In this document: positions 34,855 to 41,216 of the stretch, piece by piece
Position numbering within the stretch: the stretch's first letter is position 1
Layout of the letters: every line of letters begins with the position of its first letter
Assembly: GCF_003019035.1 (NCBI RefSeq)
Contig: NZ_CP027447.1
Length of the DNA stretch: 64,000 nucleotides
Direction: 5' to 3' (one strand)
From: Escherichia coli
GTDB taxonomy: Bacteria; Pseudomonadota; Gammaproteobacteria; Enterobacterales; Enterobacteriaceae
The notes under the pieces: model-generated
Told to the model about the DNA's origin: nothing
Database searches by the model: none
What the model saw: the letters and a program-made list of their open reading frames with translations, nothing else
Program-made: the position numbers and the translations under genes

Positions 34855-35550
34855 TCAGCCCGCGGGTGAAAACGCATCTATCACCTTGTGATCGACACCT
34901 TCATTCTCCCCCGCCAGTTCGGCACTGAGCTTCGCCATAAACTCGACTAAAAATTGCGCGTTGTGCTGCGCCAGCTGCTTGCCTCTTGCGGTTTGCATGG
35001 TTTGCGGTAGCTTCAGCAACTTAGTCTGGAAATGATCCAGCGCGTAGCGTTTATCATCAAGCGGACGATGCTGTGCGAACGGATCTTCACCATCAAACAG
35101 CGCCACGCCCAATGCCCCTGAAACGGCAAACACGCGCGCCAGGCCAATCGCCCCCAGGGCTTCCAGCCGATCCGCATCCTGGACGATTTTAGCTTCCGTT
35201 GTTAAGGGGGCGATTTGCGCGCTGAAACTGTGAGCGGCAATGGCATGACAAACGGCCTCGATTTTCTCCGCCGGAAATTGCACGAACTCTTCACGGAGCA
35301 GGCGACGCGTCTCTTCTGCCGCCAGGATTGAAGAACGCTGCCGTTGTGGATGATCTTTCGCCAGGCTCACAATATCGTGAAAATAACAGGCGGTTAAAAT
35401 CACCAGCATATCGACATCGTCATCTGCCGCCAGCTTCTGTGCCGTAGCCCAGACGCGGCGAAAATGACATACGTCATGGGCCGCGTCCTGGTGCTGATGA
35501 TGGTTTTTTAACCAGTTTTCGAACTGTGCCTGCCAGTGTTGTAAGTCCAT
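34855..35550 (-). CDS. yedJ: HD-domain phosphohydrolase
   Basis: ORF trimmed to ATG at 35550 ([10 protein letters not shown]); HD motif present. Confidence 0.9.
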
Positions 35551-35589
35551 ACGCGCTCCGTTGCCAAAGAGTCGCAACCTTAGCAGTTT

Positions 35590-35955
35590 TTATTCATAGC
35601 GTCTGCTACGTGCGGGACGAGGTCGGGTGTACCAGGCAATGCTGCCTAACAATGCCCCGACCAGAGCCATAAATAAAAAGCCGACCAGTGCCCCTAACCA
35701 CTTTCCCGCGGTAGAGCCTAAATCGCTTTCAAATCCCGACACGGGGGCATCGGGGATCCGGCTCATCACCCAGATGTAACGCGCCATTGCCCAGACGAAA
35801 TAGCCACACCATGTATAGAAAGCCCACAAAGCCAGTTTGCCACCAGGACTGCGAGAGAGTCTCTCTTCCATCTTTGTCGAACCGTATTCCATTTTGAGAT
35901 AACCCGGAAAATTCAGACTTAGTACTATTATGTGATAAAAGTCACATTTTTCCAC
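35590..35955 (-). CDS. yedR: inner membrane protein YedR
   Basis: two predicted TM helices; start uncertain (GTG 35955 chosen, TTG 35973 possible). Confidence 0.8.
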   Translation of the reverse strand: MEKCDFYHIIVLSLNFPGYLKMEYGSTKMEERLSRSPGGKLALWAFYTWCGYFVWAMARYIWVMSRIPDAPVSGFESDLGSTAGKWLGALVGFLFMALVGALLGSIAWYTRPRPARSRRYE

Positions 35956-36185
35956 ATTGGATGAGCCAGTCAAGACTCAATCATTTTTTGAACAAATAGA
36001 TAATTTTTGCGCAACGGCAATAATTACCGGAAAAACAGCAATAAAGATTTATTATTATCTATGGTAATGGTTTTATTAATTCACCTAAACAATATATTAG
36101 CACCGAATTCAATTATACCTTTTTTGATTTCTGTGTCATGATAACCCCGTTATTAGCCTTTTATCGTCTTGTTTATATTTTTTGG

Positions 36186-36209
36186 GCCGGCATGATGCCG
36201 GCTTTTTTT
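36186..36209 (+). terminator. orphan intrinsic terminator-like hairpin
   Basis: gccggcatgatgccggc followed by seven T on the plus strand; no annotated plus-strand gene upstream. Confidence 0.4.
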
Positions 36210-36371
36210 ATGTCTTCATTAATGTGCGCGTGATCACATCAGCCGTTTAGCGCAGCAATCATTGATACTTCCTATCTTTCCAATCAACTCATAACATATT
36301 GATATATATTCATAATCTTCATGAATATTTATATCTAGAATTCATAATTTTGAATTATATTAAATAGATTA

Positions 36372-36412
36372 GAAACATTTTGAAATCTTTTAAATACATT
36401 TGTTACATGTAA
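36372..36412 (+). promoter_or_regulatory. OmpR-box-like AT-rich repeats upstream of the porin gene
   Basis: gaaacattttgaaatcttttaaatacatttgttacatgtaat resembles ompC/ompF OmpR sites (TTTACATTTTGAAACATCTA-type); by eye only. Confidence 0.35.
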
Positions 36413-36520
36413 TCCTTAAAATAAAATGAACTTCATAGAATAGTATCCAAATGTGCTTTTTTTTGGATAACGGCACTTATTGATATATTCATGAAGATTA
36501 TAATCACAAGGGAATACATA

Positions 36521-37636
36521 ATGAAAAGAAAAGTTCTGGCAATGCTGGTCCCGGCGTTATTAGTTGCTGGCGCAGCAAATGCGGCTGAAATTTATAATAA
36601 AGATGGCAATAAAGTTGATTTCTACGGCAAGATGGTTGGCGAACGCATCTGGTCAAATACTGATGATAATAACAGCGAAAACGAAGATACATCCTATGCT
36701 CGTTTCGGTGTTAAAGGTGAAACCCAAATCACCAGCGAACTGACTGGTTTCGGTCAGTTTGAATACAACCTCGACGCCAGCAAACCTGAAGGTGAAAACC
36801 AGGAAAAAACCCGTTTAACCTTCGCCGGTTTGAAATATAACGAGTTAGGATCATTTGACTATGGCCGTAACTACGGTGTTGCTTATGATGCCGCAGCTTA
36901 TACCGATATGTTAGTTGAATGGGGTGGCGATTCCTGGGCTTCCGCTGACAACTTCATGAATGGTCGTACCAACGGTGTTGCAACCTACCGTAACTATGAT
37001 TTCTTTGGCCTGGTTGATGGTCTTGATTTTGCGATTCAGTACCAAGGCAAAAACAGCAACCGTAGCACTAAGAAACAAAATGGTGACGGCTATGCGTTGT
37101 CTGTAGACTATAACATCAATGGTTTTGGTATCGTTGGTGCATATAGCAAATCTGATCGCACCAACGATCAAGTTGCCGATGGAAACGGTTCAAATGCTGA
37201 ACTGTGGTCATTGGCTGCAAAGTATGACGCGAACAATGTCTACGCAGCTGTAATGTACGGTGAAACTCGTAATATGACTCCGGGTTCTATTGATACAGGT
37301 GTTGCCGATCGAGAAGGCAATACAATAATGCGTGATCAACTTATCAATGAAACCCAGAACTTTGAAGCGGTTGTTCAGTATCAATTCGACTTTGGTCTGC
37401 GTCCGTCCTTAGGTTATGTGTATTCTAAAGGTAAAGATATCAAAGGTGTACCTGGACATAGATATGTTGACGCTGACCGTGTGAACTACATTGAAGTTGG
37501 TACCTGGTACTACTTCAATAAGAACATGAACGTTTATACTGCATACAAATTCAACATGCTGGATAAAGATGACGCCGCCATTACTGGCGCAGCAGCTGAT
37601 GACCAGTTTGCAGTTGGTATCGTCTACCAGTTCTAA
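36521..37636 (+). CDS. yedS: OmpC/OmpF/PhoE-family general porin (yedS position, intact)
   Basis: signal peptide [22 protein letters not shown]-terminal ...VGIVYQF; 371 aa from ATG 36521 with SD aaggga. Confidence 0.88.
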
Positions 37637-37678
37637 TCAGCCAACGCGCCGCGGCGTGTTACTGTAAAACTTAACAAT

Positions 37679-37716
37679 AGCCTGAGTTCGTCCCTCATCG
37701 AACTCAGGCTTTTTTA
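37679..37716 (+). terminator. intrinsic terminator of the porin gene
   Basis: 12-bp stem agcctgagttcg / cgaactcaggct followed by a T-run. Confidence 0.65.
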
Positions 37717-38227
37717 TTGGCATTTCATCTCGATCTGCGGCGCACGCAATTGCCAAAGCATATCGATACAGCACCTTACCCCGCCCCCCTGGCTCAATAA
37801 AATCTACCAGCGTCTCTTCCAGCCAACACCCAAATGCATTTCTTTATAAATTTAATCTGTAACAAAACCGCTTCCCATATAGAAATATTTGCAAAAATAG
37901 TGCATGAAAAAAGCTTTTTCTCTGCCAATCCGGGATATAAATATTCATCCGTACCACAATATTCCACAGCACTAAATCTCTCCCCGCCCCCCCGGACTTC
38001 TGATAATGGTCTAAAATCATTGAGGCCACTTGCGACGACGTTGCTCAATAAGGAAAATTTGGCGTGAATAATATTCAACACCAGTGCAGCATCATCATTA
38101 CATACTTACACCCGCCGACTACCGCTTTCGATATATTGACTCAATTTTCCAGCCTGGTTAAAAATAGCGACCAGCTCAGTCGCAAATATAGTGACTACCC
38201 TAACTAAGCAACAATAAGGAATACACT

Positions 38228-39079
38228 ATGACTGTTCAAAAAAGTAAAAATCCGCAGGTCGATATTGCTGAAGATAATGCATTCTTCCCTTCAGAATATT
38301 CGCTTAGCCAATATACCAGTCCTGTCTCTGATCTTGATGGCGTGGACTATCCAAAACCGTATCGCGGTAAACATAAAATTCTGGTGATCGCCGCGGACGA
38401 ACGTTATTTGCCGACCGATAACGGCAAACTGTTTTCGACCGGTAACCATCCGATTGAAACGTTGCTGCCGTTGTATCATCTCCATGCTGCAGGTTTCGAA
38501 TTCGAAGTGGCGACCATTTCCGGTCTGATGACCAAGTTTGAATACTGGGCTATGCCGCACAAAGATGAAAAAGTAATGCCATTCTTTGAGCAGCATAAAT
38601 CGTTGTTCCGCAATCCGAAGAAACTCGCGGATGTTGTCGCCAGCCTCAACGCTGACAGCGAATATGCAGCAATCTTTGTTCCTGGTGGTCATGGCGCACT
38701 TATTGGTTTACCTGAAAGCCAGGACGTAGCTGCCGCTTTACAGTGGGCAATCAAAAATGACCGTTTTGTTATCTCCCTTTGCCACGGCCCGGCGGCATTT
38801 CTGGCGCTTCGCCACGGCGATAACCCACTGAATGGTTATTCCATTTGCGCATTCCCAGACGCCGCAGACAAACAAACGCCAGAGATAGGCTATATGCCGG
38901 GTCATCTCACCTGGTACTTCGGCGAAGAGCTGAAGAAAATGGGCATGAACATCATTAATGACGACATCACCGGGCGAGTACATAAGGACCGTAAAGTTCT
39001 CACCGGCGACAGTCCTTTCGCAGCGAATGCGTTGGGTAAACTGGCGGCGCAGGAAATGCTGGCCGCTTACGCGAGTTAA
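38228..39079 (+). CDS. hchA: Hsp31 glyoxalase / chaperone (DJ-1/PfpI family)
   Basis: 283 aa. Confidence 0.95.
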   Translation: MTVQKSKNPQVDIAEDNAFFPSEYSLSQYTSPVSDLDGVDYPKPYRGKHKILVIAADERYLPTDNGKLFSTGNHPIETLLPLYHLHAAGFEFEVATISGLMTKFEYWAMPHKDEKVMPFFEQHKSLFRNPKKLADVVASLNADSEYAAIFVPGGHGALIGLPESQDVAAALQWAIKNDRFVISLCHGPAAFLALRHGDNPLNGYSICAFPDAADKQTPEIGYMPGHLTWYFGEELKKMGMNIINDDITGRVHKDRKVLTGDSPFAANALGKLAAQEMLAAYAS

Positions 39080-39186
39080 TCCCTGTTACATTGTAATGTA
39101 AGCGCATAATCAATCGCAGCCACGTTAATACTCACGACGTGGCTGCGTTTTTTCATGGTTAATTTATGGCGTACTGAAGCCCTATG

Positions 39187-40545
39187 TTAATTTCTTTGCG
39201 GTAACGTAATCCGGAACACATTATGCTTATTGAGATAGTGATACGTAGCACTTCCCCCATGCAATTCGGCAATCGCTTTGACTAAAGAAAGACCAAGTCC
39301 CTGACCTACGGAATGACGCGAATTATCTCCCCGCCAAAATCTACGGAAGAGTTTTTCAGGCTCATGAATTTTCGTTCCAGGACTGGCGATATCAATATTA
39401 AGAGAACCGTTGGTATCAAGAAAACTGGTTATCTGAATACGCGATTTTTCTGGCGAATATCGAATAGCGTTAACAATAAGATTCGATAACATTCGTTGCA
39501 GTAAAATTTTATCCGCAAAGATTTGCTGATTGCACTCGACCTTAAAGCAAATCTCTTTCTCGTCTGAAAGGTATTCAAGATAGTCCAACAAATTTTCGAC
39601 TTCCTTATTGAGAGAAAGCGAGTCCAGTTTCACCAAAACATTATTTTTATCTGCCCTGGCAAGAAACAGTATGTTCTCTGTTAACCGCGAAATATTTTCC
39701 AGCTCTTCAATGTTTCCGGCAATTGTTTTTTGATATTCAGCGATACTTCTGGTTTGACTGAGCGTAACCTGATTCTGACCCAGTAATGCATTAATTGGCG
39801 TTCTAAGTTCATGAGCGAGATCGTCAGCAAACTGACTTAGACGCTCAAAATCTTTGACTAAAGCTTGGTGCATTTTATTCAACGCCTGCCCAAGAGGTTT
39901 TAGTTCTCTCGGTAATGCGCTAACCTCAACAGGCTCCCGGTTATCGTTATAATTCAGCGCTTCCGTTACACCACTCAACTTTTTGATCTCTCGTAACCCC
40001 GTTCTGATTAACAACGGACTTAATACTGAGCACAGTATAATGGCAACAATGCAAATTATAATGCTATTAATTTTATACTGTTCAAGCATGTTATGTCTGG
40101 CTGAAGCCAATTTAGCCACAGTAACCGTTAATGATGGCGAAACTTCATCAATATTAATTCGTAAAGCATCTATCTCTGTGTCATTAATAATGCTTCTGTA
40201 AATGCCAGCTGCGCTGATTGTCTCACTAGCAGGTATGTTATTTAACATGCCATCACTGACATTTGTCCGGTTAACAATTTTATTGATGCCATCACCATGA
40301 ATGAGCAAGATATCCTGACTAACATCCATCATCCGGTTAAAGTACACAGGTAACGTATCTGGATTTACCCCATCAATTAACAACTGCTTGATCTGCGCTG
40401 TCCGGTTAATGAGTGTTGTATCATCGCGCCATTTCAACTCACTTGCCAGGCCATTATAGAGAGTCCAGACAATTCCAGCGCCAGCAACAGACAGCAGCAA
40501 TATAAAAAGCAAGGTTAAACGGACGGTTATAGATAATCTTTTCAT
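39187..40545 (-). CDS. hprS: two-component sensor histidine kinase
   Basis: 452 aa; His-kinase H-box HELRTP. Confidence 0.93.
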   Translation of the reverse strand: MKRLSITVRLTLLFILLLSVAGAGIVWTLYNGLASELKWRDDTTLINRTAQIKQLLIDGVNPDTLPVYFNRMMDVSQDILLIHGDGINKIVNRTNVSDGMLNNIPASETISAAGIYRSIINDTEIDALRINIDEVSPSLTVTVAKLASARHNMLEQYKINSIIICIVAIILCSVLSPLLIRTGLREIKKLSGVTEALNYNDNREPVEVSALPRELKPLGQALNKMHQALVKDFERLSQFADDLAHELRTPINALLGQNQVTLSQTRSIAEYQKTIAGNIEELENISRLTENILFLARADKNNVLVKLDSLSLNKEVENLLDYLEYLSDEKEICFKVECNQQIFADKILLQRMLSNLIVNAIRYSPEKSRIQITSFLDTNGSLNIDIASPGTKIHEPEKLFRRFWRGDNSRHSVGQGLGLSLVKAIAELHGGSATYHYLNKHNVFRITLPQRN

Positions 40546-41216
40546 TATTTTTTTACCGCTACGAATGAATAGCCCATCCCCCGGATTGTGGCGATTAGCT
40601 TTTCAGGAAAAGGATCATCAACTTTTGCGCGGAGCCTGCGAATGGCGACGTCCACCGTATTGGTATCACTATCAAAGTTGATTCCCCAAATTTCACTCGC
40701 AATAACCGTTCTGGGGATAATCTCGCCAGCTCTGGAGGCCAGTAGCCAAAGTAACTGAAACTCCTTGCGCGTCAGTGTAATACTGATATTGTCCCTGCTC
40801 ACACTTTGACTAACAGAGTCCATTCTTAAGCCGCTGATTTCTAATGATGAATTCAGAGCGTGATGTTGCCTTAATTGTGCCCGAACCCTTGCCAGCAACT
40901 CAGAAAATGAAAAAGGTTTTACCAGATAATCATTTGCTCCACTGTCCAGCCCTCTGACTCTGTCATCGACAGAATCCCTTGCAGTAAGGCAAATAACAGG
41001 GGTTTGCTTTGCTGTTCTTAACGTTTGTAAGATCTGCCAGCCATCCATACCCGGAAGCATAATATCCAGAATGATCAATGCATAATCATCCTTCAGCGCA
41101 AGATAAAGCCCATCTCTGCCATCTGAAACGGCATCAATGACATAACCCGCTTCGGAAAGCCCCTGCGTTACCCATTCCTGGGTCCTTTGATTATCTTCAA
41201 TAAGTAGAATCTTCAT
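40545..41216 (-). CDS. hprR: OmpR-family response regulator
   Basis: ORF trimmed to MKILLIEDN, 223 aa. Confidence 0.93.
   Translation of the reverse strand: MKILLIEDNQRTQEWVTQGLSEAGYVIDAVSDGRDGLYLALKDDYALIILDIMLPGMDGWQILQTLRTAKQTPVICLTARDSVDDRVRGLDSGANDYLVKPFSFSELLARVRAQLRQHHALNSSLEISGLRMDSVSQSVSRDNISITLTRKEFQLLWLLASRAGEIIPRTVIASEIWGINFDSDTNTVDVAIRRLRAKVDDPFPEKLIATIRGMGYSFVAVKK

Follow-up and report, generated by a model that had tools for sequence, protein, structure and literature searches.

What is the DNA that separates the porin gene from hchA in Escherichia coli, and why does it carry two nearly identical C-rich patches? In the window analysed here, that is, the whole stretch of 64,000 nucleotides, the same spacer also contains a minus-strand open reading frame (ORF) of 95 amino acids. 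These features could be read as the borders of an inserted element, as a phase-variable switch, as a small protein gene, as regulatory DNA of hchA or as the remains of a gene that is intact elsewhere in the genus. We compared the spacer across E. coli strains and Escherichia species and weigh these readings against each other below.

Genomic context of the porin-hchA spacer

The spacer (37637-38227, 591 bp) lies between an intact porin gene of the yedS/OmpC-like locus (36521..37636, plus strand; ORF list and SCU-301 RefSeq annotation) and its right neighbour hchA, the gene for glyoxalase III/Hsp31 (38228..39079, plus strand; ORF list and SCU-301 annotation). It is 100% identical to the spacer of E. 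coli SCU-301 and was found in 4,870 of the 5,426 complete E. coli genomes searched. Farther out, the local gene order places drpB and, beyond it, yedJ to the left of the porin gene, and hprS to the right of hchA, all three on the minus strand. In the annotations of K-12 and O157, the porin locus is a pseudogene (yedS). The alleles of the porin gene are highly diverse, and the rseX small RNA sits before this gene.

Immediately downstream of the porin gene, a terminator scan and an inverted repeat define an intrinsic terminator (37679..37718, plus strand), with a hairpin at 37679-37710 that consists of a 12-bp stem and an 8-nt loop, followed by a T run to 37718. This terminator is kept in all E. 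coli alleles compared, in the cryptic clades and in E. albertii. Apart from it, the scan for promoters and terminators yielded one weak sigma-70-like site by hchA and a small hairpin; it returned nothing at either C-rich patch, and no promoter-like hexamers lie near them. A covariance-model scan against Rfam detected no family in 37400-38400 up to E = 1, and across 35000-40600 the sole family at the gathering score was rseX (36120-36209), outside the spacer. A full-text literature search on the hchA promoter, its transcription starts and the yedS-hchA region returned no paper that treats this spacer.

Two C-rich patches that resemble each other in one lineage

The first patch, site 1, reads CCCCG-C6-TGG (CCCCGCCCCCCTGG; 37779..37792, plus strand) and the second, site 2, CCCCG-C7-GG (CCCCGCCCCCCCGG; 37982..37995, plus strand), both verified against the sequence. 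The two are identical at 13 of 14 positions, are in direct orientation and start 203 nt apart. A first-pass annotation, made from the sequence alone, had located site 1 exactly and had described C tracts of 6-7, which correspond to uninterrupted runs of C6 at 37784-37789 and C7 at 37987-37993; site 2, which it placed at 37983..37996, begins one base lower.

The resemblance between the sites does not convincingly exceed chance. With at most one mismatch, the 11-nt core occurs twice in the 64 kb, compared to a mean of 1.05 in shuffled sequences, and 26 of 100 shuffles contained two or more copies; when the spacer (591 nt) was resampled with a first-order Markov model, 16 of 300 sequences (~5%) contained a direct 14-mer repeat matching at 13 or more positions. 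At the corresponding positions, K-12 reads CCCTGCCCCTCC and CCCCGCCACCCC (in the fuller reading, CCCTGCCCCTCCTGG at site 1 and CCCCGCCACCCCGT at site 2), and its spacer allele contains no pair of 14-mers that agree at 13 or more positions. Among strains, the two sites vary independently and, in alleles other than that of the window, are far less alike.

The 13/14 direct match around ~190 bp is what would be expected if the 14-mers were target-site duplications or recombination sites around an inserted element, such as a MITE, an IS remnant or a pair of att sites, and IS insertions do occur in this spacer in some strains. The enclosed segment, however, is single-copy (a median of one per genome, with 4,741 places in 4,730 records), and the 14-mers enclose no terminal inverted repeats. 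No empty-site allele was seen: at least 80% of the segment is covered in 4,718 of the 4,730 matching genomes, and the partial matches examined turned out to be one IS-interrupted allele and one IS-replaced allele. Neither precise excision that leaves a single 14-mer nor copies of the 190-bp segment elsewhere were found. Together with the match rate expected by chance, the loss of similarity between the sites in other alleles and the orthology of the enclosed DNA to the ends of a gene (see below), these observations make an inserted element extremely unlikely. The pair that the first-pass annotation had described as direct repeats flanking ~190 bp is no true repeat around an element. A G-quadruplex was also considered and was dropped on inspection, given that the minus strand offers only two G runs per site and that ~190 nt separate the sites.

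An intact Usp-family gene in other Escherichia species

The key to the spacer comes from other species of the genus, for which we compared hchA loci with one genome per species. In four non-coli Escherichia species, namely, E. whittamii, Escherichia sp. E1V33 and two that are classed as separate species although their genomes bear the title E. coli, the porin-hchA spacer spans 1064-1190 bp, compared to 591 bp in the window. In all four, it contains an intact minus-strand ORF that encodes a 134-aa protein, and this protein scores above the cut-off of the Usp family in Pfam (PF00582; 38.4 versus 24 bits, E 2e-9); hereinafter, we denote this gene usp. The four copies show no frame disruptions, and the pairwise dN/dS values among them are 0.18-0.38; thus, usp is a real gene that is subject to purifying selection.

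Among the NCBIfam models, those nearest to the 134-aa protein are UspG and UspF (NF012000, NF011581). Both score below their cut-offs, with 62.9 versus 189 bits for UspG and 36 versus 166 bits for UspF, and the alignment with the UspG profile covers positions 1-114 of 142. Because these scores fall far under the equivalog cut-offs, the protein is a separate short Usp paralogue rather than the UspG or UspF equivalog. The paralogue has eight matching clusters in a collection of 5.8 billion proteins, and the organism is Escherichia wherever one is named.

When the intact usp region of the cryptic clades was compared by megablast to the 5,426 complete E. coli genomes, no match was obtained. A more distant blastn search of these genomes with usp found no intact gene either, and yielded a 96-nt match alone, which, as described next, belongs to a relic.

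A usp relic in the E. coli spacer

Both ends of usp can be traced in the E. coli spacer, with the order of the blocks and the strand preserved. The 3' (C-terminal) part of the relic, approximately codons 99-134 with the stop codon, occupies 37726..37829 on the minus strand and holds site 1. Window positions 37637-37768 align at 81% identity with positions 1816-1949 of the compared locus L023, through the porin end, the terminator and the last usp codons, and this alignment reaches into the terminal part of usp, which is intact in L023 (1904-2308). In the minus-strand alignment, the 3' relic appears as degraded versions of the peptides LADVIV, LGATQELG, F and IDMLRQFSVP, and it carries stop codons, for example, TAA within site 1. 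The 96-nt match mentioned above, obtained with L023 1908-2003 as the query, is present in 69 E. coli genomes at 74-75% identity (E 1e-5 in a search of 28 Gb), and the one of these 69 matches that was checked lies in the porin-hchA spacer.

The 5' (N-terminal) part, codons 1 to ~38, maps to 37866..37972 on the minus strand by blastn, tblastn and multiple alignment. Blastn aligned window positions 37881-37963 with positions 2212-2295 of locus L021, which comprise the first ~30 usp codons (77.6% over 85 nt, E 2e-10), and in a tblastn comparison to the window, amino acids 4-26 of the protein matched with 48% identity (E 5e-5). Relative to the intact gene, this part has one insertion and two deletions, each of 1 nt, and the old ATG start has become GTG (37970-37972). 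The multiple alignment continues into a relic of the Shine-Dalgarno sequence at 37978..37985 (minus strand), where GGGGAGAG of the minus strand aligns to CAGGGAAT of the cryptic clades, 7-8 nt before the start codon; the alignment of this region (CAGGGAATACCTATG in the cryptic clades and CGGGGAGAGATTTAGTG in E. coli) extends to about codon 38.

Between the two parts, approximately codons 40-98 (~180 nt) are lost, with the junction in the global alignment at roughly 37830..37865 (minus strand); tblastn of amino acids 39-102 against the window gave no match. The central part of usp aligns only loosely, and therefore the boundaries of this deletion are approximate. On the far side of the gene, the global alignment shows that the ~450 bp preceding usp are absent from the E. 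coli spacer, and homology restarts at 37992, with CCGGACTTCTGA in the window against ATCCTGATTTCTGA in the cryptic clades. Altogether, ~70 of the 134 usp codons are traceable in the relic.

No Pfam family, PF00582 included, was detected with either the 95-aa ORF or a 70-aa ORF that the PGAP pipeline calls over the relic in strain L002. Its frameshifts and short length keep the translations of the relic from matching PF00582, and the family assignment therefore rests on the intact orthologue. None of the records examined annotates the relic as a pseudogene, and we found no earlier description of it.

The segment between the patches, which the first-pass annotation had left unassigned, is the relic of a minus-strand Usp-family gene that had escaped its reader. 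We consider it probable, with good confidence, that the E. coli spacer as a whole is a colinear, frameshifted and internally deleted usp relic, and that the C-rich patches and the variable tract described below are outcomes of its ordinary decay. The ancestral locus would have contained a small UspG/UspF-like gene on the minus strand, divergent from hchA. In the E. coli lineage, decay would have proceeded through a deletion of the central ~60 codons, a deletion of ~450 bp before the usp start, and the accumulation of frameshifts and substitutions in the remaining ends. The ~450-bp deletion may have occurred via short CC(C)TGA microhomologies. The situation in E. albertii counts against this explanation: its 516-bp spacer contains neither the usp gene nor a detectable relic.

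The 95-aa ORF

The first-pass annotation had also pointed out the 95-aa minus-strand ORF (37794..38081 in the ORF list, with a GTG start at 38081) and noted that it belonged to no recognised family. The ORF is indeed there and, as mentioned above, a Pfam search with it comes out empty. In a protein search of the kind that annotation had proposed, nearly all matches were Escherichia hypotheticals: the collection of 5.8 billion proteins contains 59 relatives, all of 52-136 aa, designated 'hypothetical protein' and devoid of domains, that come from Escherichia or from unlabelled metagenomic fragments, except for one partial entry labelled Pseudomonas aeruginosa.

These ~59 matching protein clusters, the existence of the frame with its GTG start and the fact that, in several genomes, the NCBI pipeline calls the same frame a hypothetical protein (WP_157698605.1) are compatible with a real gene for a small protein, either lineage-specific or newly emerging, with the C/G runs within or just downstream of its coding sequence. 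The comparison of alleles speaks against such a gene. Among 17 alleles, the frame that opens at the shared GTG stops after 95, 78, 76, 58 or 36 aa, as a result of 1-nt indels and stop codons. The RefSeq/PGAP annotation at this position is inconsistent accordingly, with no product in SCU-301 and K-12 and with products of 95, 78, 76 or 70 aa, of differing extent, in other genomes. Furthermore, the frame runs across the frameshifted pieces of the usp relic. We regard a genuine gene here as hardly credible. Given the variable end and the lack of a family match, the ORF is classified as spurious; it is a chance frame that begins antisense within the block upstream of hchA and extends across the usp pieces.

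The conserved block upstream of hchA

The part of the spacer next to hchA differs from the remainder. The conserved, putatively regulatory hchA-proximal block (37992..38227, plus strand), delineated by alignments and the promoter scan, contains the sigma-70-like match TTGACT-18-AAAAAT (38136-38165), an inverted repeat (38167-38183) and a TATAGT motif (38187-38192). In its aligned part, the block is 79-87% identical to the cryptic clades and E. albertii, and in a comparison of nine E. coli alleles, the proximal ~220 bp are far less variable than the distal spacer; the comparison of 17 alleles covers just the first ~100 bp of the block. The functional control region of hchA thus probably begins near 37992.

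A broader reading would make the whole spacer functional hchA regulatory DNA, for example, an H-NS silencing region bounded by the C patches. The hchA gene is reportedly silenced by H-NS and dependent on sigma-S, the relic core (37837-37936) is AT-rich (26-36% GC), and the distal segment, 37720-38020, is kept in ~87% of E. coli genomes. Within this segment, however, variation is extensive: identity to the window reaches 95% in only 56 of the 4,730 matching genomes and lies at 80-90% in 997, with several indels across strains. Conservation is concentrated in the proximal ~220 bp, and E. albertii keeps the terminator and the proximal block, with unrelated DNA in the distal part. Regulatory function of the entire spacer is therefore unlikely in our assessment. 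The AT-rich core of the relic could have been co-opted, for instance, for H-NS binding. The suggestion in the first-pass annotation that the region may simply be the hchA promoter holds for ~37992-38227, the part that is conserved across Escherichia, and fails for the remaining spacer.

Origin of the C-rich patches

The alignment with the intact gene assigns the two patches to different parts of the old usp locus. Site 1 is orthologous to the usp codons L-G-A-T-Q-E-L-G. On the minus strand, the cryptic clades read CTGGGAGCTACGCAGGAATTGGG at this position, E. coli O158:H23 reads CCAGGTGGTGCAGGATAAGGGG, K-12-type alleles CCAGGAGGGGCAGGGTAAGG and the window CCAGGGGGGCGGGGTAAGG. This series suggests that the glycine-rich codons drifted to GGAGGGGCAGGG (the coding strand in K-12) and that, in one group of haplotypes, the interrupting base was then lost, which would have produced an unbroken poly-G/C run. 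Site 2 would have a separate history: the old ribosome-binding site, now GGGGAGAG, was apparently abutted to a C-rich stretch by the ~450-bp deletion, and a single G/A-to-C substitution in the lineage of the window would have completed the C7 run. Only the window and strain 980-2 show this run; most alleles read CC[G/A]CCCC.

An origin of the two sites by duplication is ruled out because the orthologous positions, coding codons in one case and the 5' leader in the other, are unrelated. Given their independent origins, the resemblance of the sites is coincidental; as far as the alignments can tell, they are unrelated C-rich patches that happen to be alike in the lineage of the window.

Length variation of the site 1 tract

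The comparison of tract lengths across strains that the first-pass annotation had proposed revealed length polymorphism at site 1. We read the lengths directly in 18 alleles and inferred the remainder from BLAST match spans. Among the alleles read directly, the run is C6 in the window, 042, CFSAN061771, MEI003 and UID2309220041, C7 in M160133, C8 in NCTC86, C9 in MB20 and ZJ3920, C10 in N66 and C13 in GPEC128-620. With the C13 allele and its exact flanks as the query, match spans point to C13 in one record (GPEC128-620 itself), C12 in three records, C11 in 22 records (including UTI89, NU14 and PMV-1) and C10 in at least 34 records (including the type strain DSM 30083, S88, IHE3034, UM146, APEC O18 and H10407); these counts include repeat deposits of a strain, such as UTI89, which is present four times. 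Across the 5,426 genomes searched, 179 records match the query with an identity of 95% or more, equivalent to C9 or longer, and ~717 further records at 90-95% represent C6-C8 or alleles that share these flanks and have the T interruption. Tracts of C10-C12 are carried by ST95-type ExPEC strains.

The length can differ between alleles with identical flanks, namely, between CFSAN061771 (C6) and M160133 (C7), and among NCTC86 (C8), ZJ3920 (C9) and GPEC128-620 (C13). One-base differences among some assemblies could be homopolymer sequencing errors; for NCTC86, two independent assemblies give the same span. In the T-interrupted alleles (CCCCTCC; K-12, O157 and ST131 strain 4224), which account for roughly half of the E. 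coli genomes, the length is constant. At site 2, alleles differ by base substitutions and by a single 1-nt indel that is specific to one clade, and no homopolymer slippage was observed across the compared alleles. The idea, raised in the first-pass annotation, that the C tracts might slip during replication is thus borne out for site 1, with its range of C6-C13, and not for site 2. Variability by slippage beyond a threshold length is the classic behaviour of mononucleotide repeats, and the run at site 1, once uninterrupted at six or more bases, would have become prone to replication slippage that generated the C6-C13 range. The tract is probably a neutral hypermutable repeat devoid of function.

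Hypermutable tracts of this kind invite comparison to contingency loci, which often accompany genes for surface proteins in Neisseria, Haemophilus and Campylobacter. If site 1 were such a phase-variation locus, it would tune hchA or the porin gene through promoter geometry, through binding of H-NS or other nucleoid proteins, or through read-through of the terminator. The hypervariability of the tract even with identical flanks, the 179 genomes with C9 or longer, and the adjacent gene for a surface-exposed porin with diverse alleles all fit this scheme. The position of the tract does not: it lies outside conserved ORFs, 66 nt past the hairpin of the porin terminator and 436 nt before the hchA ATG, with no promoter-like hexamers flanking it. 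About half of the genomes carry the interrupted, non-slipping allele, so that no conserved need for variability is visible, and the glycine codons of the dead gene explain the sequence of the tract. When examined, the tract proved to lie neither within a functional ORF nor within a core promoter, and for this reason we do not count it among the contingency loci; a role in phase variation appears very unlikely. It is slightly less probable still that the length of the poly-C run, or its T-locked state, has been co-opted as a knob that sets hchA or porin expression differently between lineages, by way of local DNA structure, nucleoid-protein binding or read-through of the porin terminator.

Relation to known systems and implications

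The relic described here combines two objects of known kinds, a gene relic and a polymorphic mononucleotide repeat. As a gene relic, it follows the pattern familiar from enterobacteria, for example, yedS in K-12: it is syntenic with an intact gene, retains colinear ends, and has accumulated frameshifts and internal deletions. Like other gene relics, it is skipped or called inconsistently by annotation pipelines. Its erosion has gone much further than that of yedS, and annotation pipelines do not mark it as a pseudogene. The relic is fixed: it occurs in the ~87-90% of the 5,426 genomes in which the spacer is retained, and the intact gene occurs in none. With respect to its family, the protein of the cryptic clades resembles UspG and UspF in that it passes the PF00582 cut-off, but differs from them in that it does not include the last ~25 profile positions, is very rare and is dead in E. 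coli.

Polymorphic mononucleotide repeats have reportedly been found in noncoding E. coli DNA, and such repeats are said to have been used for strain typing. The tract at site 1 is similar to these, being a noncoding homopolymer with a length that differs between close strains and with stable interrupted alleles; with as many as 13 bases, its G/C run is a long one for this species. The tract shares with the contingency loci of Neisseria, Haemophilus and Campylobacter the hypermutability of a poly-C/G run and the proximity to a gene for an outer-membrane protein, but in contrast to those loci, it is located outside any functional frame and outside the spacing between -35 and -10 elements.

The usp relic accounts for an unannotated, unusually variable spacer in a well-studied genome, and the 'hypothetical proteins' of 52-136 aa that are called here are artefacts on a gene relic. 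The locus also provides an example of a hypermutable homopolymer that apparently arose from glycine codons after selection was lifted. For fine-scale typing of strains, the C6-C13 tract could provide a marker, and the biology of hchA and of the porin would be unaffected unless the tract alters their expression. For the genus, the small Usp paralogue separates E. coli, in which it is dead wherever the spacer is kept, from several cryptic lineages, in which it is intact.

Variable and conserved parts of the porin-hchA spacer

Within Escherichia coli, the spacer between the porin gene and hchA (37637-38227) falls into two parts that contrast sharply in variability. In the distal, porin-side part, which carries the decayed relic of usp, a minus-strand gene of the Usp family, most E. 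coli genomes are only 80-95% identical (37720-38020), whereas the proximal block of ~220 bp adjoining hchA (38010-38227) is far less variable. The distal haplotypes are mosaic among E. coli genomes, a pattern that suggests recombination. In some strains, the spacer also contains insertion sequences (Res13-Lact-ER02-39, locus L010, and TUM2820, locus L011): in one of these two strains, IS600 and IS30 occupy the place of the porin side, and in the other, an ISKpn26 insertion has removed the spacer and cut off part of the 5' end of hchA.

The proximal block includes a perfect inverted repeat, GCGACcagctcaGTCGC (38167-38183), located directly upstream of a -10-like TATAGT (38187-38192) that lies ~35 nt 5' of the hchA ATG. 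The repeat is invariant among the 9 E. coli alleles compared and is also retained in the cryptic Escherichia clades and in E. albertii. It may act as an operator or form an RNA hairpin in the core promoter or leader of hchA.

The porin locus itself is highly diversified. The gene in the window (36521-37636) is intact and encodes 371 aa. Among the E. coli loci compared with it (L002-L019), those of K-12 and O157 have a pseudogene with a frameshift, and in other strains the alleles, named either 'porin' or 'OmpC', have annotated lengths of 1059, 1116, 1179, and 1194 nt. The gene for the small RNA RseX (36120-36209, plus strand; Rfam RF01401, 97.8 bits), a down-regulator of porin mRNAs, lies immediately 5' of this intact, variable gene, in the interval that separates it from drpB.

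The locus in other Escherichia and in a metagenomic bin

In the cryptic clades (loci L021-L024), usp is intact (about positions 1900-2430) and is paired divergently with hchA. The 134-aa protein aligns only to the first ~114 of the 142 positions of the UspG profile, so the C-terminal segment usual in the family is missing. The protein is extremely rare, being represented by 8 protein clusters, all from Escherichia where the source names the organism. E. marmotae has a 55%-identical variant (P0064, P0065).

Two short contigs (L032 and L054) from a metagenome-assembled genome labelled Collinsella sp. encode HchA proteins 99-100% identical to that of E. coli, and one of these contigs also contains the spacer, with 96.6% nucleotide identity. 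These contigs almost certainly represent E. coli contamination of the bin.

In the E. albertii locus (L020), neither usp nor its relic was found in the spacer. The HchA protein of E. albertii is 97% identical to that encoded in the window, compared with 93-95% for the cryptic clades, an order opposite to that usually seen in the distances between these species. Taken together, the reversed order of HchA identities and the spacer devoid of usp or its relic are a hint that this locus has undergone recombination or transfer.
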